Positions 4,230 to 54,244 of a DNA stretch of 64,000 nucleotides are shown here, in pieces. The notes beneath the pieces are model-generated. The model ran no database searches. It was not told the origin of the DNA and worked only from the letters and a program-made list of their open reading frames with translations. The DNA is taken from the NCBI GenBank assembly GCA_050952445.1, contig JBMNKX010000006.1, positions 90,333 to 154,332 on the forward strand, given 5' to 3'. The position numbers and the translations under genes are program-made. Numbering within the stretch: the first letter of the stretch is position 1; each line of letters opens with the position of its first letter. The stretch comes from Bacillota bacterium. GTDB taxonomy: Bacteria; Bacillota; Dehalobacteriia; Dehalobacteriales; Dehalobacteriaceae.

Positions 4230-4575
4230 ACCAAAAGAAATGTTTCAACACAGTATTTTACCGCAAATCACAAAAAAATCTTCTCGATTTAAGAGCCAAA
4301 AATTTTGTGTTTGTTATGCGTCTTATACAATTAATCTAAAACTTCACTGTCTTATTCTGCAGAAAATCAAAAGAGCTTTTTCACTGCAGGAAATAATGGG
4401 AATTCGTCGAATTATAGTCAAAAACCTACCAGCAGGTGTAAAAGCAGGTGTAATAATGGATAGGCTTGTAAAGTTTTACTACTTAATGCACTAATTATCA
4501 TCATTTTACACTGCCTGTTCGAGCAGAGCAGAATAGAAACTTCGATTATCTAACAATTCATAAACGGCCGTTTTT

Positions 4576-21688: not shown

Positions 21689-21882
21689 AGAAGATAGCGC
21701 CCTACAATGTGCGTGATTAAGCCGATATGTTTTGAGCCAACACATTTTAAAAGGGAACTTGACTTTGATTGTAGCCTTGAAGCCTCTGAAACAGAGGAAC
21801 AAGAAAGCAATCAGGGAAGTACCCACCTGCCGGGGGCAGGTTCAAAACAACGGCAGCACGGCATCTGTGGGGTTATTCTTTA
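21689..21882 (+). ncRNA. ssrS: 6S RNA
   Basis: About 190 nt, non-coding, in the aspS-tcdA(yrvM) spacer where I recall B. subtilis 6S-1 (bsrA) lying. Long imperfect closing helix (AAGAUAGCGCCCUACAAUGUGCGUG...GCCG / CGGC..CACGGCAUCUGUGGGGUUAUUCUU), an apical stem (GAUUG..CCUCUGaaaCAGAGG..CAAUC) and a central bubble with hairpin CCUGCCgggGGCAGG. Confidence 0.7.
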
Positions 21883-39840: not shown

Positions 39841-39926
39841 ATATCGTAAATATTTTGCTTTCAAAAGTGGCACATTTTTTTAAGAAGTTCATACAATGTA
39901 GAACCGACACTTTTGGAGGTGATTTT

Positions 39927-40631
39927 ATGGGTCCCGAATGGATGGCGTTTTTTGGCTTTGCTCTCTTAAAGGGACTTCATGTTTTTTTGGGGTTTATTAA
40001 TAATAACGCTTTTCCCCAGCCTCTTACAGAAGAAGAAGAAGCCGATTACCTAGCTAAACTATCATCAGGCGATGATGAAGCACGGAATATTTTGATTGAG
40101 CATAACCTCAGGCTGGTGGCTCATATCGCCAAGAAATTTGAAACTACAGGTGTTGACAAAGACGATTTAATATCTATTGGAACCATCGGTTTAATAAAAG
40201 CAATTAATACTTTTAATACCTCCAAAGGAACTAAATTAGCCACTTATGCGGCACGGTGTATCGAAAATGAAATCCTCATGCATCTACGCTCTACAAAAAA
40301 CATAAGAACAGAAGTCTCTCTATATGATCCTATAGGTGTCGACAAAGAAGGCAATGAGGTTTCTTTAATGGATGTTATGGGAACAGAATCTGATTCGGTA
40401 CTTGAGTTAGTTGAAGCTTGCTTTGAACAAGAACAATTATTAACGAAGGTGCGTAATTTAGAAAATAGAGAGCGGTATGTATTACAGTTAAGATATGGCC
40501 TGTTTAACGGTCTTCGGAGGACTCAAAGAGAGATTGCTAAAAAATTGGGTATTTCCCGATCCTATGTATCCCGGATTGAAAAAAAAGCTATTCAAAAATT
40601 AATTAAAGAGATGTCAAATGGAAACTGCTAA
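39927..40631 (+). CDS. sigK: Pro-sigma-K (sporulation sigma factor, uninterrupted)
   Basis: FINNNAFPQPLTEEEE..NILIEHNLRLVAHIAKKFE..DLISIGTIGLIKAINTF closely parallels B. subtilis SigK, including a ~20-aa pro-sequence. ATG 39927 follows a GGAGGTG RBS. Confidence 0.9.
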   Translation: MGPEWMAFFGFALLKGLHVFLGFINNNAFPQPLTEEEEADYLAKLSSGDDEARNILIEHNLRLVAHIAKKFETTGVDKDDLISIGTIGLIKAINTFNTSKGTKLATYAARCIENEILMHLRSTKNIRTEVSLYDPIGVDKEGNEVSLMDVMGTESDSVLELVEACFEQEQLLTKVRNLENRERYVLQLRYGLFNGLRRTQREIAKKLGISRSYVSRIEKKAIQKLIKEMSNGNC

Positions 40632-43162: not shown

Positions 43163-43190
43163 AAAAAACCGCCAGGCGGTTTTTTTTTTT
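43163..43190 (+). terminator. Intrinsic terminator after the MerR-like gene
   Basis: AAAAAACCGCC-A-GGCGGTTTTTTTTTT. Confidence 0.8.
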
Positions 43191-43262
43191 GCAGGAAAGA
43201 AAGTATATTGGTAGAAGTTTTTTCATTCAGAGAGAAAATTATGAATATGAGGAGATTTATGC

Positions 43263-44963
43263 ATGGCGGGTATTAAAAAAAAATTAGGTGATTTGTTAGT
43301 TGAAAATAAATTGATTAATTATGCCCAACTTGAGGAAGCATTAAAGCTTCAAAAACAGACAGGTGACCGTCTTGGCCGGGTTTTAGTAAATTTAGGATAT
43401 ATAACAGAGCAGGATATTGCCAATGTTTTAGAGGTGCAGCTGGGTATTTCCCAGATAAAGCTGGGAAATACCGTTTTGCTTCCAAGTGTGATTCAATTAA
43501 TTCCTGAGGCTTTAATCCGCCGGCACCGGGTGGTTCCGGTGAAAAAGGAAGGGCGGAAAATTACTGTAGCTATGGTTGATCCCTTAGACTTAATTGTCCT
43601 TGATGACTTAAATTTAGCTACGGGCTATCAAATTGAGCCTATACTGGCTACAGAGAGGGAAATAGATGCTGCGCTGCAAAGACTTTTCGGATTTCAGGAT
43701 TTGATAAATAAAGCAGTACGGGAATTTGAAGATATGCCTGTACAAACTCCAACATCTTTTGATTTAGACGAAGTTCCAGACATCCTGGTTGAGGAAGCAC
43801 CTACTATTAGGATAGTCAACTCTCTTATCCAACAGGCCTTGAAAGAACGGGCCAGTGATATTCACATCGAACCTCATTCTGATGGAGTACGGATTCGCTA
43901 CCGAGTTGATGGACTTCTTAAAGATATAATGAATCTTCCTAACCAGTCATTAGCTTCAGTGATTTCAAGAATAAAGATCATGGGTGAGATGGATATATCA
44001 GAAAAACGTATTCCCCAGGACGGCCGGATTCAGGTAAAAGTAGCTCAGAAAAATATTGACTTGAGGATTTCTACTATTCCAACCATTTTTGGGGAGAAGG
44101 CTGTTATTCGGATTTTAGATAAGTGCACAGCCTTAGTTTCCCTTGACTCTCTAGGATTTACACCGGATGTGATTAAGCTCTATCGAAATTTAATCCACCG
44201 GACCTATGGAATGATTCTGATTACCGGTCCTACAGGTTCCGGGAAAACTACGACACTATACTCTTCATTAAAGGAAATTATTTCTTCAGATAAAAACATT
44301 ATTACTATTGAAGATCCGGTAGAGTATGTTTTAGATGAGATAAACCAAATCCAGGTTAATGCTAAGGCAGGTCTGACATTTGCCACCGGTTTACGGGCAA
44401 TTCTGCGCCAGGATCCGGACATTGTGATGGTTGGAGAAATCAGGGACAGCGAGACAGCAGGTATTGCGGTACAGGCTGCCAACACAGGGCACCTTGTTTT
44501 TAGCACTCTGCATACCAATGATGCAGCAGGAGCCCTTCCTAGGCTGATGTATATGGGGGTAGAACCTTATTTAGTAGTATCTTCAGTGATTGCTGTGATG
44601 GCCCAGCGGCTTGTTCGGGTAATTTGTCCGATGTGCAAAGAAGAATATCAGCTTCCCGACAATAGTGCTGAGCGGAGTTTTTTAAATATTCCTAACGGGG
44701 TAGCTGTTACTCTGTACCGGGGAAGCGGATGTAATCATTGCGGTCAAACTGGATACCGGGGACGGGTAGCTATTCAAGAACTTCTCCCTATAACCCAGGA
44801 ACAGAGGGAGTTGATTTTAACCCATGCATCTTCCAATGATATTAAACGGTTCGCAATAGAAAAAGGAATGGTTACTATGACACAGGACGGAATTCAAAAA
44901 GCCCTGATAGGTTTGACCACATTGGAAGAAGTGATGAGAGTTGCTTCTGCAGAAGAGATATAA
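43263..44963 (+). CDS. pilB: Type IV pilus assembly ATPase PilB (GspE family)
   Basis: N-terminal T2SSE_N domain, Walker A GPTGSGKTT, Asp/His boxes and the tetracysteine CPMC...CNHC. Confidence 0.92.
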   Translation: MAGIKKKLGDLLVENKLINYAQLEEALKLQKQTGDRLGRVLVNLGYITEQDIANVLEVQLGISQIKLGNTVLLPSVIQLIPEALIRRHRVVPVKKEGRKITVAMVDPLDLIVLDDLNLATGYQIEPILATEREIDAALQRLFGFQDLINKAVREFEDMPVQTPTSFDLDEVPDILVEEAPTIRIVNSLIQQALKERASDIHIEPHSDGVRIRYRVDGLLKDIMNLPNQSLASVISRIKIMGEMDISEKRIPQDGRIQVKVAQKNIDLRISTIPTIFGEKAVIRILDKCTALVSLDSLGFTPDVIKLYRNLIHRTYGMILITGPTGSGKTTTLYSSLKEIISSDKNIITIEDPVEYVLDEINQIQVNAKAGLTFATGLRAILRQDPDIVMVGEIRDSETAGIAVQAANTGHLVFSTLHTNDAAGALPRLMYMGVEPYLVVSSVIAVMAQRLVRVICPMCKEEYQLPDNSAERSFLNIPNGVAVTLYRGSGCNHCGQTGYRGRVAIQELLPITQEQRELILTHASSNDIKRFAIEKGMVTMTQDGIQKALIGLTTLEEVMRVASAEEI

Positions 44964-44973
44964 GGAGAGTATC

Positions 44974-45990
44974 ATGAAGATTGAGGAAATTCTTTCTGAG
45001 GCTAAAAATCAGGGAGCATCAGACACCCATCTTTCAGTTGGAATGCCGCCGGTTTTTCGACTCCACGGTGATATTATCCCCCAGATGTCTTGGCCCGTTT
45101 TAACCTCTGTAGAAACAGAAAAACTGTGTCGGCAGATGATGAACAAATATTCCCTTTCCCAAATAGAAGAAAAGGGGGAAACTGATTTTGGATACGAAAT
45201 TCCAAGAATAAGCAGGTTCCGGGTAAATATATTTAAACAAAAAGGATACTATGGTGCATCCATACGTACTATTAACTATAAAATACTGAGTTTGGAAGAA
45301 TTAAGACTACCCCAGGTTTTAGGAGAACTATGCCGGAAGCCTCGAGGATTAGTCTTGGTAACCGGACCTACCGGGAGTGGTAAAACCACTACTCTTGCCG
45401 CTATGATTGACCAGATCAACAGGGAAAGAAAAGGCCATATATTAACACTTGAAGATCCCATTGAATACATACATCACCATCAAAACTGTATTGTGAACCA
45501 GCGGGAAATAGGCAGTGACTCATTATCATTTGCCAGCGCTTTAAGAGCCGGCCTTCGTCAGGATCCTGATGTTATCTTGATAGGTGAGATGAGGGACCTG
45601 GAGACAATTTCTACTGCTGTAACAGCAGCAGAAACCGGACATCTGGTGCTTGCTAGTTTACATACATCCAGTGCCGCCCAAACAGTAGAGCGAATGATTG
45701 ATATTTTTCCACCGCATCAGCAGCAACAGATCAGGATACAGTTAGCTGCTGCAATAGAGGGTATTATCTCTCAAATACTGCTAAAAAAAGTGGATGGAAC
45801 AGGAAGTATTGCTGTAGCAGAAGTAATGATTGCTACTCCTGCGGTACGGAATCTGATCCGAGAAGGAAAAACCCACCAACTTAATTCAATGATTCAAACA
45901 GGTAGGCAATATGGAATGCAGACTATGGAGTCGGCATTAAAGGAGCTTGTGTATAAAAAGCTTATCAGAAGTGATGATATAATACTTTGA
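44974..45990 (+). CDS. pilT: Type IV pilus twitching motility / retraction ATPase PilT
   Basis: MKIEEIL..GASDTHL, Walker A GPTGSGKTT, and AIRNLIREGK-like motif (AVRNLIREGKTHQ). Start moved to ATG 44974. Confidence 0.9.
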   Translation: MKIEEILSEAKNQGASDTHLSVGMPPVFRLHGDIIPQMSWPVLTSVETEKLCRQMMNKYSLSQIEEKGETDFGYEIPRISRFRVNIFKQKGYYGASIRTINYKILSLEELRLPQVLGELCRKPRGLVLVTGPTGSGKTTTLAAMIDQINRERKGHILTLEDPIEYIHHHQNCIVNQREIGSDSLSFASALRAGLRQDPDVILIGEMRDLETISTAVTAAETGHLVLASLHTSSAAQTVERMIDIFPPHQQQQIRIQLAAAIEGIISQILLKKVDGTGSIAVAEVMIATPAVRNLIREGKTHQLNSMIQTGRQYGMQTMESALKELVYKKLIRSDDIIL

Positions 45991-46127
45991 TAATTAACTA
46001 AAATTGTAATATTCTTGAGAAAATTTTTCAAATGGTGCAGGAATTTACCAAAATAAAGAGAATACAAAATAAAAAAGAATACTTGTTCAGAAATAAAATT
46101 AATGTATTAGTTTTTAAATAATAAATC

Positions 46128-46237
46128 AAGTAATTGGTAAACTACTCGAAAGGGTAGGGCACAAAGCTATGGGTCTTCGGTTGTATTAACCATGATTGCC
46201 AGGCTGCATTAGAAAATTCTGATGCAGTTTTTTTGTT
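46128..46237 (+). promoter_or_regulatory. c-di-GMP-I (GEMM-I) riboswitch with intrinsic terminator
   Basis: GGUAAACUACUCGAAAGGGUAGGGCACAAAGCUAUGGGUC matches the GEMM-I core, including the GNRA loop GAAA (compare Vc2 GGCAAACCAUUCGAAAGAGUGGGACGCAAAGCCUCCGG). Terminator CTGCATTAG/CTGATGCAG (46204-27) is followed by a T7 tract. Confidence 0.75.
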
Positions 46238-46283
46238 ATTGATGATTTTTTCATTTGATAAATTTTTCTCTTGAGGTGGATAG

Positions 46284-47498
46284 ATGACGGTTTTTGTTTA
46301 TAAGGTGCGGGATATGGTAGGGAAAAGTCTATCGGGTACTATAGAAGCGGAAAATGAAAGGGCAGTGATAGAGCATCTCAGGAGCAAGGATTATTTAATA
46401 ATAGATATTTCCCAACAAAGATTTAGAAATATTAAAACAAAGATGCCGAAACTGTATCCGAAAGTAAAACCGAAGGATTTAGCAATTTTTTGTCGACAAC
46501 TGTCCACACTACTGGATGCCGGAGTTTCTATTCTTTCCTCTGTGAAGGTTTTACAGGAACAGTCTAACAATAGGCTGCTAAAAGAAACTTTAATTCAAGT
46601 AATAACAAATCTGGAAGAGGGAAGTTCTTTTGCCGATTCTATCCGGCCATTTCCCAAAGTTTTTCCCGGGATTGTAATTAGTATGGTAGAGACAGGTGAG
46701 GTAGGAGGAACTTTGGATGAAGTTATGGTACGACTCGCAGCACATTTTGAAAGGGAACATGATATCAATGAAAAGATAAAATCCTCCATGACTTATCCAA
46801 TAGCAATTATAGTTACTGCCACTTTAGCGATTACATTTCTTTTAGTCTTTATGATGCCTAAGATTATCGGGATGGTAACTCAAACGGGGGTAGAGTTGCC
46901 TCTGCCAACTAAAATTGTTTTGGGAATCAGTATTGTTATTAGAAAATTCTGGTGGATAATTCTGGTATTATTTATAGGAACCTTTTTTGTTTTGAAAAAA
47001 ACCGTTGGTACGAAAAATGGTAAAGGAATTAATGATTTCCTGATTTTGAGAATACCTATTTGGGGAAAATTGATGCAGGAAATGATTATTTGCCGATTTA
47101 CCCGTTCCTTAGGTACCATGCTGAGGTCAGGAGTACCTATTATTGAAGCCCTGGATACGGTACAGCGGACAGTGGGAAATCAAGTTATCAGCAAAGGTGT
47201 GGAAAATGCCCGGGCTAATATTATCCAGGGTAAAGGCATTGCTGAACCAATGCGAGAATCCGGCATCTTTCCTCCTATGGCCTTAGAGATGATGGCAGTA
47301 GGGGAAAAAACCGGGGCATTGGATGCGTTGCTGGAAAAGATCGCAGTCTTCTACGACCAGGAAGTGGATCACATGCTCTCTCGCTTATCCACTATGGTGG
47401 AATCTATCATGATTATTGGACTGGGTGTGGTTCTTGGGTTTATCATTATTGCGATGATGTTGCCTATTTTTCAGGTAGTGACCAAAATTCCTAATTAG
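46284..47498 (+). CDS. pilC: Type IV pilus platform protein PilC (GspF family)
   Basis: Two GspF repeats and three TM segments. 404 aa. Confidence 0.9.
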   Translation: MTVFVYKVRDMVGKSLSGTIEAENERAVIEHLRSKDYLIIDISQQRFRNIKTKMPKLYPKVKPKDLAIFCRQLSTLLDAGVSILSSVKVLQEQSNNRLLKETLIQVITNLEEGSSFADSIRPFPKVFPGIVISMVETGEVGGTLDEVMVRLAAHFEREHDINEKIKSSMTYPIAIIVTATLAITFLLVFMMPKIIGMVTQTGVELPLPTKIVLGISIVIRKFWWIILVLFIGTFFVLKKTVGTKNGKGINDFLILRIPIWGKLMQEMIICRFTRSLGTMLRSGVPIIEALDTVQRTVGNQVISKGVENARANIIQGKGIAEPMRESGIFPPMALEMMAVGEKTGALDALLEKIAVFYDQEVDHMLSRLSTMVESIMIIGLGVVLGFIIIAMMLPIFQVVTKIPN

Positions 47499-47545
47499 GC
47501 TAACAAAACATTTTGAATTTATTAAAATGAAAGGAGGTGAAAAGG

Positions 47546-47926
47546 ATGTTGCAAAAAATGAAGAAAATGGTTATTAATGACAAGGCTTTTACCCTCATTG
47601 AATTAATGATAGTGGTAATTATTCTTGCTATTCTGGCTGCTATTGCTATCCCCCAATTTACTCAAAATAAAGAGGAAGCACTCGATGCCCGTATTAAAGC
47701 TGACATAAAAATAATACAAAATGCTGTTGATTTGTATAAGTTTGAAAAGAATGAGTATCCGTCTTCCATTAGTGACCTAGTGAATGATGGATATTTACGT
47801 ACTGAGCCTAAGCACCCTGACGATCAAAACTATGAATATACTCTTGAAAAAGACGCAGATAATAATATAACAGGAAAAGTTACTATTACGCCAAAGTCAC
47901 CGCAAAATTTAAATGATGAGGATTAA
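47546..47926 (+). CDS. pilA: Type IV major pilin (prepilin)
   Basis: Leader MLQKMKKMVINDKA followed by FTLIELMIVVIILAILAAIAIPQF, a class III signal with Glu+5. ATG 47546 lies 8 nt after AGGAGG. Confidence 0.85.
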   Translation: MLQKMKKMVINDKAFTLIELMIVVIILAILAAIAIPQFTQNKEEALDARIKADIKIIQNAVDLYKFEKNEYPSSISDLVNDGYLRTEPKHPDDQNYEYTLEKDADNNITGKVTITPKSPQNLNDED

Positions 47927-47937
47927 TTTGTTTTTCC

Positions 47938-47972
47938 GACAGGGCTTCGGCCCTGTCTCACCCCATTTTTTT
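47938..47972 (+). terminator. Hairpin or partial terminator after the pilin gene
   Basis: GACAGGGC-TTCG-GCCCTGTC stem-loop with a T7 tract 8 nt downstream. Confidence 0.55.
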
Positions 47973-47982
47973 GAGGTGCATA

Positions 47983-48732
47983 ATGGATTTCTTATTTATT
48001 TTTTTACTAGGCCTGGTAATTGGTAGTTTTCTGAATGTGTGTATTTCCCGGATTCCTCAAGGTGAGTCCATCTCTTTTCCTCCCAGCAGATGTGATTACT
48101 GCTACACAAATCTAAAGCCGTGGGATTTGATTCCTATCGCCAGTTTTCTCTTATTAGGAAGAAAATGCCGCCATTGTGGAGCAGAATTATCCTGGCGCTA
48201 TCCGGGAATTGAATTCCTTACCGGGATAATTTTCCTCTTTTTCTATCTTCAGTTTGGTTTGAATATAAAATTATCAGCATATTTGTTTTTAGCCTCTCTT
48301 TTAGTGGTAATCTCCTTTATTGACATTGACCATTACCGGATTCCTAACTCTTTAATTCTGATGGGAATTGGGGCAGGAGTTGGGTTTATTATATTTACTC
48401 ATTTTATCCACCCCCGAGATGCCCTCCTGGGATTCTTTACCGGAGGGGGAATTCTCTTTTTCATTTCCCTGGTAAGCCGGGGAGGTATGGGAGGGGGAGA
48501 TATTAAGCTTGGTGCTTTAATCGGTCTCTTTCTCGGCTGGAAGCTATCCCTTATCTCACTTTTTTTAGCGGCATTATTTGCCTCCTTAATAGGGATCTTG
48601 TTAATTGTTCTAGGTAAAAAATCCCTTAAGGATGCTCTTCCTTTTGGGCCCTTTTTAGCTTTGGGAGCAATTTTATCTCTCTTTTGGGGAAATGATCTCC
48701 TTTCTTGGTATATACGTCATTTTGTTGCTTAA
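47983..48732 (+). CDS. pilD: Prepilin peptidase PilD (A24 family)
   Basis: N-terminal CxxC...CxxC zinc region, polytopic membrane topology, and catalytic Asp motifs (IDIDH, GGGDIKL). Confidence 0.9.
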   Translation: MDFLFIFLLGLVIGSFLNVCISRIPQGESISFPPSRCDYCYTNLKPWDLIPIASFLLLGRKCRHCGAELSWRYPGIEFLTGIIFLFFYLQFGLNIKLSAYLFLASLLVVISFIDIDHYRIPNSLILMGIGAGVGFIIFTHFIHPRDALLGFFTGGGILFFISLVSRGGMGGGDIKLGALIGLFLGWKLSLISLFLAALFASLIGILLIVLGKKSLKDALPFGPFLALGAILSLFWGNDLLSWYIRHFVA

Positions 48733-48847
48733 TAGCGGTAACTAGAAGAAATTTGAAATTGAAAGGCGAGAGGGCAGGGAAAAAGAGACAGGTTGTCGAA
48801 CCTTGTTTTTAGGTGACTATTAATGGGTATTATTTGAGGGTTCTTAT

Positions 48848-49300
48848 ATGAAATATTGTAATAATAAGGGTTTTTCTTTTATAGAACTGGCAATTGTCAT
48901 TGTCCTGATGGGGATTATTCTTGGTATTGCCTATCCAAAATTTGAACGCTCAATGGCTAATTGGGAATTAAATGTAACTGCCCGAAAAATGGCTACGGAT
49001 ATCCGAAGATGGCAGCAGAAGGCGGTAACAGAAGAAAAATCCGGGTTAAAACTAACTATCAACCAGGAGCAAAAAATATATTATCTCAAAGAAGATATTT
49101 ACATTAAAGAAACCCATGATTTAAGTGATGTGGTGAAAAGCATCAGTGTCGCGCCTGTTACCTTTAATAATATAAACTTTACACCTACAGGAAAAACCAG
49201 TGCGGCGGGAACAATAACCCTGGAAAATTGGGACGGAGGTTTTAAATATATTATTGTTAACACTACCGGGCGGGTGCGGGTATCGTCAACCCGACCTTAG
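48848..49300 (+). CDS. Minor pilin / pseudopilin (GspH/FimT-like)
   Basis: Prepilin signal NNKG|FSFIELAIVIVLMGII. Confidence 0.75.
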   Translation: MKYCNNKGFSFIELAIVIVLMGIILGIAYPKFERSMANWELNVTARKMATDIRRWQQKAVTEEKSGLKLTINQEQKIYYLKEDIYIKETHDLSDVVKSISVAPVTFNNINFTPTGKTSAAGTITLENWDGGFKYIIVNTTGRVRVSSTRP

Positions 49301-49317
49301 ATGTTGGATTTTGAGGT

Positions 49318-49707
49318 ATGAATATGAAAAAAGTGTGGGGAAATAACAGAGGATTTACCTTAATCGAAATTGTTGTCTCTATGCTTATTATTACGATTGC
49401 TTTGGTTCCCATGATGGATATGTTCTACAGCAGCCGGGATAACTATGGACGTGCTACAGAGACTACAATTGCCCTTAATCTGGCTCAGGGAAAAATGGAG
49501 GAGCTATTAGGCCAAAATCCTGTACACATTTCTGCTAATTCGACTTCATGGCTGGATTTTCCGTATTCTGGTGATTATACCTACCAGGTAAATGTTTCTG
49601 AGGCTGACCTAACTTTAAAACTATATCAAATTGATGTTCGGGTAAGATATCAAGTTGCCGGAAAAGAACAGCAGATTTCATTAAGTGCATATGCTACCGG
49701 TGAGTAG
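49318..49707 (+). CDS. Minor pilin (PilV-like)
   Basis: Prepilin signal NNRG|FTLIEIVVSMLII. Confidence 0.75.
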   Translation: MNMKKVWGNNRGFTLIEIVVSMLIITIALVPMMDMFYSSRDNYGRATETTIALNLAQGKMEELLGQNPVHISANSTSWLDFPYSGDYTYQVNVSEADLTLKLYQIDVRVRYQVAGKEQQISLSAYATGE

Positions 49708-49717
49708 GCGGTTAATT

Positions 49718-50218
49718 ATGATAGGACATGAAAAAGGCTTTACTTTAATAGAAACAGTGATTGCTATAACATTATTTATCATAATTCTTGGTGGTGTTTC
49801 TGCAATTCTCTTTTCCGGTCTGGATTCTTGGACTCGCGGGGAAGAACAGATCGATGTTGTACAGAATATGCGGATTGGGTTGGATAAAATGGTTAGAGAA
49901 ATCAGGGAGGCAGTAGATATTACTTCGTCAGGGGATACATATATTCAGTTTACAATACCCATTATAGATGATAATTCTTTAGATTTTACCGGCTCGGTGA
50001 AAAGCATAGGTTATCAATACGATAGTGCCGAACAGGAATTAGAAAGAAAAGTAGGGAGGAGTACTCCTCAACCTGTGGCCAGCCGAATAAAAAATGTCAC
50101 CTTTTCTTATTCGGGAACACCAACTAAAATAGTAAATATTACTATGGTGGGAGTCAGAAAAGATGGTCAAGAAATTACCATGGAATCCAAAGTGTTGTTA
50201 AGGTCTGTGAGCAGGTAA
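49718..50218 (+). CDS. Minor pilin (PilW-like)
   Basis: Prepilin signal MIGHEKG|FTLIETVIAITLF. Start moved to ATG 49718. Confidence 0.7.
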   Translation: MIGHEKGFTLIETVIAITLFIIILGGVSAILFSGLDSWTRGEEQIDVVQNMRIGLDKMVREIREAVDITSSGDTYIQFTIPIIDDNSLDFTGSVKSIGYQYDSAEQELERKVGRSTPQPVASRIKNVTFSYSGTPTKIVNITMVGVRKDGQEITMESKVLLRSVSR

Positions 50219-50230
50219 GGCGGGAATTGA

Positions 50231-51376
50231 ATGAAGAAAAACAAAGGTTCTGTAATTGTCCTGGTAGTCTTTACCATGATTATTATTTTCTTATTGGGAA
50301 CTGCTTTGATTGATGTTTCCCACATTGACTTTACTATGAGTAATAACCAGGTTAATGAAGTCAAGGCATATTATATTGTTGAGGCAGGGATAAATAAGGC
50401 TCTGGCAAAGCTCCGTTCTGATGCATCATTATTAAATAGCCTTTTAAATTTAATTGAAGGACAATCCCTTAATGTCATTGATAAAGAGTCTTTTGGCGGA
50501 GGGAACTATTTTGGTACCGGAACCTCTGAAGCCATTGCCTTGACGTTGAAGGAAAAAAAGATATCCGACAAATATATTATGGTGACATTAACAGCTAAGG
50601 GTACTTATCATAATGCAAAAAAAACGATTAAAGTGCAGGTGAAAGCAGACCTGGCTGATTCCTCACAAATACCGTCAACTGCTGCTATTTTCTCTAATGG
50701 GAGTACTACAGTAAATAATAATGTTACCATCAATGGTGATATTTTTAGCCGATCCCAAATTAATGTCTTAAATAATGCTGTTGTTAATGGCAGTATAACT
50801 AGTGGTGCAGGGATCATAGTAAATAAGGCCACGGTTACCGGTACAAAAACTCCGCATAGTCCCGATTCCATTCCCCCGTATCCTGAATTTTCACTTGATC
50901 AATATAAAGAAGGAGCTACGGTGCTTAGCACTTCTTCTTTGAATATTGGTACTTTGACCACCGGAAAATATTATATTTCTGATAGTGTATCCAGTGTAAC
51001 CATTAGTGGCACTTATAGGGGCAAAATTACTTTGATTTCCAAAGGTCAGATTAATATCAACGGAAATGTTCAGGCTGAAAACAGTGATTATGAGAACAAT
51101 GCTCTAACCCTAATTACTTATAATAATATTTTTGTGAGTAATAACTATTTAGCAGAAGGGGTGCTTTATGCAGCCACATACCAAGGTACATCCGGCAGCA
51201 TTACTATTGGAAACAATGCTCATGTGAAGGGAGCTATCCTGGCCGAAAACATTACCTTTGGTAATAATGCTATACTTGATTATAGTCAAGAATTAATTAA
51301 AAATTTTACCGGTTATGCCGGCGGAGTAGCAGACTATAAAAGAGTTAGTTCTCTGGATGTTATTTATTGGAAATAG
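50231..51376 (+). CDS. PilX-like large minor pilin with a repeat-rich C-terminal domain
   Basis: PilX_N-type hydrophobic N-terminus (GSVIVLVVFTMIIIFLLGTAL) without a G|F cleavage motif. The C-terminus has N/G/T-rich repeats (NNNVTINGDIFS..NNAVVNGSITSG..). Confidence 0.65.
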   Translation: MKKNKGSVIVLVVFTMIIIFLLGTALIDVSHIDFTMSNNQVNEVKAYYIVEAGINKALAKLRSDASLLNSLLNLIEGQSLNVIDKESFGGGNYFGTGTSEAIALTLKEKKISDKYIMVTLTAKGTYHNAKKTIKVQVKADLADSSQIPSTAAIFSNGSTTVNNNVTINGDIFSRSQINVLNNAVVNGSITSGAGIIVNKATVTGTKTPHSPDSIPPYPEFSLDQYKEGATVLSTSSLNIGTLTTGKYYISDSVSSVTISGTYRGKITLISKGQININGNVQAENSDYENNALTLITYNNIFVSNNYLAEGVLYAATYQGTSGSITIGNNAHVKGAILAENITFGNNAILDYSQELIKNFTGYAGGVADYKRVSSLDVIYWK

Positions 51377-51414
51377 GATAACGGTTAAGATGTTGGTGAA
51401 AGGATCGAAGACTA

Positions 51415-52545
51415 TTGCTGAAAAAATCTTTAGTTAGGCTGCGCCAGAAATTTTATCATAAAAAGGAATCATTTATAGGTATTGATATTGGTACCAGGAA
51501 CATTAAGATAGTAGAAATGGCACCGGGTAATCCTCCCCAAATAGCTAATTTGGTCAGTATACCTACTCCGTCCGGTGCTCTTGATGACGGGACTATTGTG
51601 CAGATTGATCCCGTTGCGGCAGCAATAAAAACCGCACTGGATCAGTCAGGAATAAAGATACAGAAGGCTGTAACCATGATTTCAGGGAAAAATGTGGTGA
51701 TACGCTATATTAAGCTTCCAAAAATGAATGACAAAGAGGTGGCATCAACCCTGAAGTGGGAAGCTGATAAATATATCCCTATTTCTTCAGGGACAGACTT
51801 GATTTCAGAACACCTGGTGCTGGGTGATGCAGATGCAGATAAACCCCAAACAAGTGTTTTACTTGTTGGAGTGCCTCGACGCTTAATTTACCAGTTAAAT
51901 GAAGCATTTAAACTGGCCGGGTTAGATTTGCTAGCCGTGGAAATAGAGCCCTTGTCCCTTTGGCGGAGTATCGGCTCAAATCTATCTCAAAGAAGCAATC
52001 CTTTTATTAATATGAATGAACCATTTATCGGATTGGATATTGGGGCTAAAGCATCAAATTTGACAGTTTTTCAGGGTGAAGAATTAAAGTTTTCCCGCTA
52101 TATTCTTCAAGGAGGAGATGCTTTAACCCGATCCGTAGCTCAAGCTACCGGGTTGGAATTTAATGCTGCCCAAGTGATCAAAGAAAGGGATGGCGAACTG
52201 TTCACGGAACCTTCAACTTACTTTTCAAAGGAAAAGCTATTATTGGACCAGGTACTAAAAGAGAGTGTTTCTATTTTAATAAATGAAGTGAGACGTTCTA
52301 TTGATTATTACAAATCCCAATTCAAGATAGGTGATCCTCAAGCACTGATCCTTTCTGGAGGGACAGCCAAACTAAAAGGTTTAGTTAGTATGTTACAGTC
52401 AGAGTTAGCAATACCGGTTATGTTGGGACTTCAATATATAGGAATTAAAGAAAAGCAGGCGGATTTTGAATACAACGAGGTAAGAAATGTAGACCCGGCT
52501 TTTGCCGTAGCTGTTGGTTTAGCTATGAGAGAGGTAACAAAATGA
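51415..52545 (+). CDS. pilM: Type IV pilus assembly protein PilM (actin-like ATPase fold)
   Basis: IGIDIGTRNIKIVE and LDIGAKASNLTVF phosphate motifs. Conserved position before pilN. Confidence 0.85.
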   Translation: MLKKSLVRLRQKFYHKKESFIGIDIGTRNIKIVEMAPGNPPQIANLVSIPTPSGALDDGTIVQIDPVAAAIKTALDQSGIKIQKAVTMISGKNVVIRYIKLPKMNDKEVASTLKWEADKYIPISSGTDLISEHLVLGDADADKPQTSVLLVGVPRRLIYQLNEAFKLAGLDLLAVEIEPLSLWRSIGSNLSQRSNPFINMNEPFIGLDIGAKASNLTVFQGEELKFSRYILQGGDALTRSVAQATGLEFNAAQVIKERDGELFTEPSTYFSKEKLLLDQVLKESVSILINEVRRSIDYYKSQFKIGDPQALILSGGTAKLKGLVSMLQSELAIPVMLGLQYIGIKEKQADFEYNEVRNVDPAFAVAVGLAMREVTK

Positions 52546-53090
52546 AAAAAACTATTAATTTGCTGCCCCCAGAATTACGCAGGCGTGTAAACGTTGACGT
52601 TAATAAATTCTTAAAGCCTACAGCTATTATTGCCCTGGTAGTTATGGTAACTATAAGTTGCCTATTGTTTGTCTGGACGTTTTTATTGGATTGGTGGTTA
52701 AAAAGTACTTCCAATAATTTGGAGAGAATCAAACCCCAGATAGAACAGATACAAGATTATCAGGATGAAAATAAGCGGCTTCAAATAGAAATTAGCGAAT
52801 TGGAAAAAGTTCAAAATAGTAAAGTTAAATGGGCAGGGATACTTTTAGATATTACCGAATATGTACCCCAAAATATGTGGATTGCTAATTTTTCATATGA
52901 TCAAAACGGAAAAATTCAGATAAAAGGTATAGCAGCAAATTTGGCAACTGTTGGGGTGTTTCTAAACCAAATAGAACAACTGTCATACTTAAGTAATTTA
53001 TCCTTGGAAAAATTTTCTGAAGTGAAGTTGGGTAGTGTATCTCAAGTCGAATTCACCTTGTCAGGAATTCTGGCTAAGAGGAGTGAGTAG
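52542..53090 (+). CDS. pilN: Type IV pilus assembly protein PilN
   Basis: N-terminal INLLPPE motif, one TM helix and a coiled coil. ATGA overlap with pilM. Confidence 0.8.
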   Translation: MKKTINLLPPELRRRVNVDVNKFLKPTAIIALVVMVTISCLLFVWTFLLDWWLKSTSNNLERIKPQIEQIQDYQDENKRLQIEISELEKVQNSKVKWAGILLDITEYVPQNMWIANFSYDQNGKIQIKGIAANLATVGVFLNQIEQLSYLSNLSLEKFSEVKLGSVSQVEFTLSGILAKRSE

Positions 53091-53091
53091 A

Positions 53092-54030
53092 GTGCTGGAG
53101 AAACTTTTTGCACGGATAAAGAATTATTGGCTTATTCTACTAGTTATTATGCTTTCTATAGCCGTTTGTTTTACTATTATTAAATATCAAATACCAAAAT
53201 TTGTTGATATACGTAAGGAGTTTGAGTCAGCACAAAAGAAACTACAATTAGTTAAGTTTACTAATAATGACATTGCAGATTTGAAAGCTCAAAATAAGGA
53301 TTTAAAAAAACGCTTGGATATAGTTAAGCTTCCTTATAAAAATGAAATGAGAAATGGAATTAATTATTATTTTATAGGTCAACATGCTGTAGATAATTTT
53401 GTTTTTATAACTGAAGTTCTCCCTCATCCACTACAAGATAAAAATACATATTTTGAGATACCATTGGATATTAAAGCCCGGGGAAAATTTGCAAATATTG
53501 TTAAGTTTATTATGGCAGTGGAACAGGATATGCCTAATACCTGTGAATTACGTACTTTGGTAATTAAGCCTGAAGATACTCATAGTACAGAAAAACAACA
53601 AACATCAGATCAGGAGAAATCTAATTCCTTAAATACAGATCTAATTATTGCTAGAGATCAAAAGCCTAATGTTGAGGCCACTTTTTGTTTAGTTACCTAT
53701 ATGATAAAATCACCTGAAATTATTACCATAGCACAATTGCCTCCTATGGGACGTTTTGATATTTTTGCTCCAACTATAGATGTGTCAAAAATCTTCTTAG
53801 AGCAAACTTTACCAAAACAAACATTGCCGGATTCAGGTAAAACCGACGGAACACAACAAAATTCTCCGGTTATTAATTCATCTGATCCTGTTAATACACA
53901 TAATAAAACGAATACACATCCTTCTGACAACACTACTAATGTTACCGTTCCCGCGAACGAAAAAGATACAAAAGAAACAAATGAAATGCCAAATATAATT
54001 GATAAATCAGAAACCTATTCTACAAAATAA
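53092..54030 (+). CDS. PilO-like pilus assembly protein with a T/N/P-rich C-terminal extension
   Basis: TM helix plus coiled coil (DIADLKAQNKDLKKRL) and a PilO-like core. GTG 53092 lies 7 nt after AAGAGGAG. The tail is low-complexity. Confidence 0.6.
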   Translation: MLEKLFARIKNYWLILLVIMLSIAVCFTIIKYQIPKFVDIRKEFESAQKKLQLVKFTNNDIADLKAQNKDLKKRLDIVKLPYKNEMRNGINYYFIGQHAVDNFVFITEVLPHPLQDKNTYFEIPLDIKARGKFANIVKFIMAVEQDMPNTCELRTLVIKPEDTHSTEKQQTSDQEKSNSLNTDLIIARDQKPNVEATFCLVTYMIKSPEIITIAQLPPMGRFDIFAPTIDVSKIFLEQTLPKQTLPDSGKTDGTQQNSPVINSSDPVNTHNKTNTHPSDNTTNVTVPANEKDTKETNEMPNIIDKSETYSTK

Positions 54031-54081: not shown

Positions 54082-54146
54082 TTGACAAACCATAAATTTC
54101 TGGTCATAATAAAGAAACACGTAAACCTACGTGTTTCTTTATTATG
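54082..54146 (+). promoter_or_regulatory. Consensus-like promoter overlapped by a perfect 19-bp inverted repeat (operator and/or pil-operon terminator)
   Basis: TTGACA (54082-87), 17 nt, CATAAT (54105-10). The IR CATAATAAAGAAACACGTA (54105-23), loop AACC, TACGTGTTTCTTTATTATG (54128-46) matches at 19/19. Confidence 0.55.
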
Positions 54147-54244
54147 GAATATTTTAATATACAGTGAAAATATTTTAGTATTTAAATCTAACTGATATTA
54201 AGTGAGATTTGGTTTAAAAACATCTTTTTAGAGGAGGTAATCAT

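Follow-up and report, generated by a model that had tools for sequence, protein, structure and literature searches.

The question raised by the spacer between pilT and pilC in this type IV pilus cluster is whether the RNA transcribed from it senses c-di-GMP and, if so, whether the ligand turns the genes that follow on or off. The spacer was analysed in the context of the window (the whole stretch of 64 kb of DNA), and the results point, with high probability, to a c-di-GMP riboswitch of the canonical class I type (GEMM-I) in the leader of an operon running from pilC to pilO, whose transcription it would switch ON.

The Pilus Cluster and Its Intergenic Spacer

Between the end of pilT, whose stop codon is at 45990, and the pilC start codon (ATG at 46284) lies a spacer of 293 nt, the same length that had been given in the first-pass annotation. 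The identities that this annotation had assigned to the neighbouring genes (pilB, pilT, pilC, pilins, pilD and pilMNO) were all upheld by matches to Pfam and NCBIfam models, and the coordinates of these genes are collected in Table 1 together with those of the RNA elements. The cluster is flanked by aroE and a MerR-family gene on one side and by aroC on the other. A bidirectional terminator-like hairpin between A- and T-runs was observed just 5' of pilB (43163-43185), and a 20-bp perfect hairpin was found after pilO (54104-54147), where it overlaps a promoter-like site (TTGACA-N17-CATAAT) ahead of aroC; these two hairpins are probably the boundaries of the pilus cluster. Inside the pilC-pilO unit, the terminator scan returned short and weak terminator-like hairpins only.

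Identical copies of PilC come from metagenome contigs only, and its closest named relatives are those of Ca. Formimonas warabiya and Dehalobacterium formicoaceticum, with identities of 63% and 54%, respectively. The window also holds a gene for the sporulation sigma factor SigK (39855-40631, + strand; TIGR02846, 348.6 bits against a cut-off of 298.65), and the organism was therefore regarded as an endospore-forming member of the Bacillota.

Table 1. Coordinates of the genes, RNA elements and promoter motifs of the pilus cluster in the window.
Feature	Position	Strand	Basis or remark
SigH-like near-copy GCAGGAAA-N12-GTAGAAG	43191-43217	+	SigH-like; just 5' of pilB
Upstream unit pilB-pilT	43263-45990	+	
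pilB	43263-44963	+	T2SSE and MshEN domains
pilT	44974-45990	+	TIGR01420, 467 bits against a cut-off of 319; coordinates as called in matching public contigs
SigH-type promoter motif GCAGGAAT-N12-AGAGAAT	46037-46063	+	Conserved; sigma dependence predicted
P1 5' strand (proposed), CAAGU	46127-46131	+	
c-di-GMP-I aptamer core	46132-46206	+	RF01051, covariation
G46136, equivalent of Vc2 G20	46136	+	Base before first helix; model alignment
Outer pairs of first hairpin	46137-46138 with 46161-46162	+	Model alignment
Stem, capped by GAAA (46148-46151)	46142-46147 with 46152-46157	+	Model alignment
AAA linker	46163-46165	+	Joins the two hairpins
A46163, equivalent of A47	46163	+	In AAA linker; model alignment
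P2	46165-46205 (inner hairpin 46180-46190)	+	Model alignment
Intrinsic terminator	46201-46234	+	46201-46213 with 46218-46230, loop AAAU, T7 at 46228-46234
C46207, equivalent of C92	46207	+	Base before P1 3' strand, forming the junction with G46206; model alignment
P1 3' strand, AUUAG	46208-46212	+	Common to terminator 5' arm
Shine-Dalgarno sequence of pilC, GAGGTGG	46273-46279	+	Read from sequence; ATG at 46284
Putative regulated unit pilC to pilO	46284-54030	+	Co-transcription predicted
pilC	46284-47498	+	Two T2SSF repeats
Major pilin	47537-47926	+	Pfam/NCBIfam
pilD, prepilin peptidase	47971-48732	+	Pfam/NCBIfam
Three minor pilins	48848-50218	+	N_methyl domains
PilX-like gene	50231-51376	+	Pfam/NCBIfam
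pilM	51415-52545	+	Pfam/NCBIfam
pilN	52542-53090	+	Pfam/NCBIfam
pilO	53035-54030	+	Pfam/NCBIfam

Identification and Fold of the Aptamer

The whole 64-kb window was scanned with Rfam cmscan against 4227 families at their gathering thresholds. Two matches were obtained in all, a riboswitch aptamer of clan CL00126 at 46127-46212 on the + strand (E = 4.5e-12 for the whole window) and a 6S RNA at 21696-21877 on the same strand (RF00013, 98.4 bits, E = 1.5e-18). The top-scoring model for the aptamer was RF03167, named 'c-di-GMP-I-GGC', which passed its cut-off marginally (61.5 bits against 59), and one lower-scoring member of the clan, although above its own threshold, was suppressed in this full-length scan. 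When the sub-range 46132-46206 was rescanned without the P1 flanks, which are paired in RF03167 and left unpaired in RF01051, the latter model scored 55.6 bits against a gathering score of 35, with an E value of 4.4e-11. The first-pass annotation had described a GEMM-I aptamer core with a GNRA tetraloop in this spacer, quoted it as GGUAAAC-UACUC-GAAA-GGGUA-GGGCACAAAGCUAUGGGUC, and named a significant RF01051 score as the check to be made; the quoted core was found at 46136-46176, the GNRA tetraloop is the GAAA at 46148-46151, and the clan match together with the RF01051 score establishes the identity of the aptamer. The class II c-di-GMP riboswitch gave no match in the window at the gathering threshold and none in the spacer at E <= 10.

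Each of the 22 base pairs that RF01051 models is a canonical pair in the window, and a 121-nt region spanning the element was found to fold more stably than each of 200 dinucleotide shuffles (z = -3.9). The two hairpins, the AAA linker and the GNRA loop on the first hairpin are all present, in keeping with the description of GEMM RNAs (PMC1950547), and the ligand-contact bases G20, A47 and C92 of Vc2, the Vibrio cholerae prototype, correspond to G46136, A46163 and C46207 in the window. The aptamer therefore shares with Vc2 and the RF01051 model the two-hairpin fold, the GAAA tetraloop, the AAA linker and the G, A and C contacts, whereas it departs from them in the outer pair adjacent to the junction, which is U-A in this clade and not C-G, in a very weak P1 helix and in the tetraloop receptor of P2.

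P1 is short and AU-rich, and several registers are possible. In the RF03167 alignment, 46127 is paired with 46212 and 46129 with 46209, while an alternative register drawn by eye, which served for the fold with enforced P1, has the pairs 46131-46208, 46130-46209, 46129-46210 and 46127-46212; in one close relative (L094), a convincing P1 near the junction was not found by eye. The receptor occupies 46175-46179 and 46190-46194 in the window and reads CUUCG / CAUG, as opposed to the CUAAG / UAUG of the canonical 11-nt receptor. Four close relatives (L087, L091, L094 and L089) likewise have CUUC followed by G, C or A where the consensus has CUAAG, the other half of the receptor reads (C/A/U)AUG across the clade in place of UAUG, and L092 keeps CUAAA at the receptor position. 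A receptor in P2 commonly accompanies a GAAA loop but is not obligatory. Tetraloop receptors are known to vary among GEMM RNAs (Weinberg et al. 2007, PMC1950547), and the clade-specific CUUC may represent either another type of receptor or a contact that has become weaker. A GAAA loop that lacks the canonical receptor in P2 might lower the affinity for the ligand.

The Terminator and the Direction of Control

An intrinsic terminator directly after the aptamer was detected in two ways, by a terminator scan and by minimum-free-energy folding. The 9-bp stem with a T7 tract that had been reported earlier was recovered (46204-46212 with 46219-46227, T7 at 46228-46234), and the scan lengthened this stem to 13 pairs (46201-46230). 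[quoted passage not shown] The same overlap of aptamer and terminator was found in seven related loci (L087, L091, L094, L089, L014, L037 and L044), and the changes in the arms keep the pairing, with the U-G pair of the window replaced by U-A in L087 and by C-G in L091, L094 and L089.

The first-pass annotation had left open whether ligand binding favours or prevents termination. Because the aptamer and the terminator share bases and the leader has no separate antiterminator element, we infer an ON switch, in which the ligand would prevent termination. The same overlap was described in 78 of 322 GEMM RNAs, for which higher ligand levels were predicted to raise expression (Weinberg et al. 2007, PMC1950547). 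When the leader is folded without constraints, the terminator is formed (-34.2 kcal/mol), whereas the fold with the aptamer and P1 enforced amounts to -15.9 kcal/mol and leaves the 3' arm with only a -1.1 kcal/mol hairpin. Since the terminator is the more stable by about 18 kcal/mol in nearest-neighbour terms, control would have to be kinetic and exerted during transcription. A shortened, 8-bp terminator is still possible when P2 alone is enforced, and the decision would therefore rest on the ligand holding C92 and P1.

According to the proposed mechanism, transcripts would start at the SigH-type promoter about 55 nt 5' of the aptamer, read-through transcripts from pilB-pilT would take the same path, and the aptamer would be made first in both kinds of transcript. 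Without ligand, the 3' end of the aptamer would pair with 46218-46230, giving the 13-pair terminator followed by U7 and a stop near 46234. With c-di-GMP bound, G46136 and C46207 would contact the two guanines of the ligand, A46163 would stack between them and P1 would close; the terminator 5' arm would then be occupied, and the polymerase would continue into pilC, the pilin genes, pilD and pilMNO.

The opposite direction, an OFF switch in which c-di-GMP would favour the terminator and silence the structural genes of the pilus, was considered improbable. Class I c-di-GMP riboswitches that repress do exist, for instance 5' of the flagellar genes of Clostridioides difficile, and the 8-bp terminator that can form beside an intact P2 would be compatible with repression. 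Nevertheless, the terminator 5' arm consists of bases that belong to the aptamer itself, C92 and the P1 strand, with no separate antiterminator, an architecture that was read as one in which the ligand increases expression (Weinberg et al. 2007, PMC1950547), and c-di-GMP riboswitch control of type IV pili in C. difficile has been linked to pilus-dependent aggregation and biofilm (PMC11477304).

Other modes of control were also considered for the spacer. Translational control was rejected, as the Shine-Dalgarno sequence of pilC lies 39 nt past the U-run and in no helix of the switch, and so was a leader peptide, as the small open reading frames of the spacer are unconserved and either begin before the predicted transcript does or are encoded on the opposite strand.

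Ligand Specificity

The marginal RF03167 match raised the matter of ligand class. The consensus sequences of RF01051 and RF03167 show a single difference in the conserved core, GACGCAAAgC against GACGCGAAgC (model position 37). The core of the window reads GCACAAAGC, with A46163 at the distinguishing position, as in the canonical class, and not the G of the GGC variant. The name 'GGC' presumably refers to the bases at positions 20, 47 and 92, as judged from the two Rfam consensus lines. In the canonical complex, A47 stacks between the two guanines of the ligand. One of these guanines is recognised by G20 and the other pairs with C92, and the cGAMP-specific relatives have an A in place of G20 (PMC6140456); the window has G46136 at this position, which sets it apart from the cGAMP-type GEMM-Ib class. 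The aptamer was thus filed as canonical c-di-GMP-I, because it has an A at the base that distinguishes the GGC variant and a G and a C at the ligand contacts.

The aptamers of six further loci (L017, L019, L020, L023, L037 and L052) were also labelled RF03167 although they have A at the distinguishing position, as is seen for several Moorella and Neomoorella aptamers. The GGC label evidently tracks, in these sequences, the P1 of the model and a P2 without receptor, and not the binding site. The identification of the window aptamer as a GGC variant was consequently rejected and the label treated as an artefact of clan competition. Aptamers with a canonical binding site are in this way mislabelled as 'GGC' by Rfam clan competition, which could mislead automated annotation.

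The homologue from Ca. Formimonas warabiya (L089 2340-2426, CP017634), which also lies between pilT and pilC, carries an A in the place of G20, in the sequence UGAGUAAAC. Such an A is the signature of GEMM-Ib RNAs that bind cGAMP or are bispecific. A specificity for a ligand other than c-di-GMP in the window itself, either as a GGC variant or as a cGAMP-type GEMM-Ib, could be proposed from this homologue and from the RF03167 model coming out best (61.5 bits against 59), but it is very unlikely, as the sole core base that separates RF03167 from RF01051 is A in the window, the Moorella aptamers with A at that base receive the GGC label too, and G at position 20 discriminates against cGAMP (PMC6140456).

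Promoter Motifs and Two Proposed Transcription Units

A SigH-type promoter motif lies in the spacer 5' of the aptamer, with a -35-like AGGA (46039-46042), a -10-like GAAT (46060-46063) and a predicted start near 46070. Of the 16 loci in which pilC is preceded by the aptamer, 12 have a motif with identical spacing 5' of the aptamer, against a background of two matches in the remaining 205 kb of those loci. The matches to the pattern GCAGGAWW-N12-RNNGAAT lie at 2266 in L087, 937 in L091, 2224 in L094, 2280 in L089 and 2043 in L092, and, among the other loci, at 2315 in L019 and L023, 2321 in L017 and L028, 2327 in L020 and 2312 in L052. The SigH-type motif is also present 5' of the riboswitch-less pilC of Dehalobacterium (L090 2400), and SigA-like boxes were found in its place in L037, L010 and L011. 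The layout is that of the SigH promoters of C. difficile (PMC7438776).

The SigH pattern AGGAWWW-N11-12-RNNGAAT, matched by 46039-46063, was then counted in the whole window. It occurs seven times, at 4388, 5240, 10200, 30673, 41593, 42648 and 46039, all on the + strand, against 1.28 matches expected, and none of 100 shuffles reached seven. This excess suggests that SigH-type promoters are heavily used in this stretch of the genome. Candidate sigma-70 promoters were also sought in the spacer; the promoter scan gave weak matches only (9/12 at 45987-46015), and -10 and -35 boxes searched for by hand beside the aptamer were unconvincing for the window.

The best model from these motifs divides the genes into a pilB-pilT and a pilC-pilO transcription unit, each of which would have its own promoter, with a riboswitch leader on the second only. 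The terminator scan found no terminator 3' of pilT other than the one at 46201-46234, and read-through from pilT would therefore meet the same gate. The earlier description of the riboswitch as occupying an internal position of the cluster holds in the physical sense, but a SigH-type promoter of its own would make it the 5' leader of a second unit. The location of the aptamer and terminator supports the claim, made in the same annotation, that they are placed to control pilC through pilO.

A Possible Second Input Through PilB

Residues 7-59 of PilB match the MshE-related c-di-GMP-binding motif NF053729 with 73 bits against a cut-off of 38, and the Pfam MshEN model matches too. The motif consists of tandem 24-residue copies separated by a 5-residue spacer, with K in place of a conserved G in one copy, by comparison with the published consensus of the MshEN tandem motif (PMC11731258). 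PilB thus resembles the PilB/MshE ATPases with the same tandem motif, in which the receptor is a protein and not an RNA, and for which binding is predicted here. c-di-GMP may accordingly act on the motor activity of PilB as well as on the transcription of the structural genes. A regex search of the open reading frames of the 64-kb window for GGDEF, EAL, HD-GYP and PilZ motifs gave nothing usable, and since no GGDEF motif was seen there, the synthesis of c-di-GMP by this organism is assumed.

A multi-input gate in the spore-forming, anaerobic Bacillota of this lineage can be put forward tentatively, as a possible but rather doubtful extension. The pilB-pilT and pilC-pilO units alike would be driven by SigH-type promoters, the c-di-GMP-I ON riboswitch would add a second requirement for the structural and platform genes only, the MshEN domain of PilB would make the motor c-di-GMP-dependent, and the Formimonas copy of the aptamer would have been re-tuned to cGAMP or to dual specificity. 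If such a gate were true, pili would be made only at the transition from growth to stationary phase or to sporulation, and only at high c-di-GMP. The conserved SigH-type promoter of pilC provides a testable link by which pili and c-di-GMP could be connected with the control of stationary phase or sporulation.

Comparison with Known Systems

The pulF genes are taken here to belong to the PilC family. GEMM RNAs located 5' of pulF, pilM, pilO and pilQ, each in more than one instance, were already reported in 2007 (Weinberg et al. 2007, PMC1950547, Table 2). The RNA of the window belongs to the same aptamer class, takes the same 5' regulatory site of a PulF/PilC platform gene and has the same inferred ON logic; the 2007 paper lists gene families and not this lineage, and the type of promoter and the MshEN context of PilB are added here. 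The Geobacter cGAMP riboswitches (GEMM-Ib) have the same fold and association with pilus genes (PMC1950547), with A at position 20 where the window has G and the Formimonas copy has A.

The pilus riboswitch of C. difficile is a further case of c-di-GMP control of type IV pili in a Gram-positive anaerobe. It is a class II riboswitch that precedes pilA1, the major pilin gene with which the cluster opens, and activates the pilus genes by blocking a terminator. The present one differs from it in being of class I and in its place before pilC, after pilB-pilT. Regulation of the C. difficile type IV pilus cluster by a class II c-di-GMP riboswitch is reported in PMC11477304, which cites Bordeleau (2015).

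The proposal of the first-pass annotation that a class I aptamer at this site is a different solution was overstated, as both GEMM RNAs at pilus genes and the ON logic of the overlap were reported in 2007 (PMC1950547) and the aptamer recurs directly before pilC in 10 of the 80 listed pilC loci. There are precedents for the class, for the gene association and for the mechanism, and the understanding of how this riboswitch class works is unchanged. What is specific here is the lineage, the conserved SigH-type promoter, the CUUC receptor half of the clade and the A at the G20 position in Formimonas. An uncultured relative of Formimonas and Dehalobacterium would thereby join the organisms with RNA-level c-di-GMP gating of type IV pilus genes.

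Occurrence in Related Pilus Loci and Covariation

The same aptamer was found in 16 related pilus loci. Five close relatives have it in the pilT-pilC spacer, namely L087 (79% identity in PilC), L091, L094, L089 (Formimonas) and L092, with RF01051 scores of 60-72 bits; it was not found in the pilT-pilC spacer of L090 (Dehalobacterium) and L093. In a wider comparison, 80 pilC loci from diverse Bacillota were taken as the matches listed from a species-level genome collection, and close named relatives were added separately. The aptamer lies directly 5' of pilC in 10 of these 80 listed loci, among them those of Desulfofundulus, Desulfovirgula, Tepidanaerobacteraceae and Moorellaceae, which makes the pilT-pilC spacer a recurrent aptamer site. 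In three of the 80, the aptamer lies 3' of pilC instead (L012 3859-3946, L039 3951-4036 and L044 3811-3901), and the gene that follows is a pilin (GFTMIE) in L012 and a second pilC-like gene in L044. The position of the riboswitch therefore varies among pilus clusters.

Covariation was evaluated on an alignment of 17 sequences with the RF01051 structure, and controls were obtained by sliding the partner columns by 1-3 positions. The proportion of paired cells was 98.1% in the 17 sequences and 23-50% in the slid controls, compensatory (double) changes were found in 14 of the 22 pairs, and the covariation score was 0.634, compared with 0.06-0.18 when slid. The RF01051 structure is thus strongly supported by covariation in this aptamer family. 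That the hairpin might be a plain terminator of the pilB-pilT operon, with the aptamer as a decaying or non-regulatory relic, would suit the lack of another terminator after pilT and the degenerate tetraloop receptor, but such a reading is hardly credible against the 22 of 22 modelled pairs that are canonical in the window, the aptamer and terminator overlap that is kept with compensatory changes across lineages of 40-79% PilC identity, and the conserved promoter directly 5'.

The sequence of L092 was kept in the alignment although it is poorly aligned in the P2 3' half. In this locus (2116-2330), the P2 3' half seems to be interrupted, with a second copy of CAUGAUUGCCAGGUUGCAUCA about 60 nt past a diverged first copy, and the terminator lies much further downstream; the L092 aptamer may carry an insertion.
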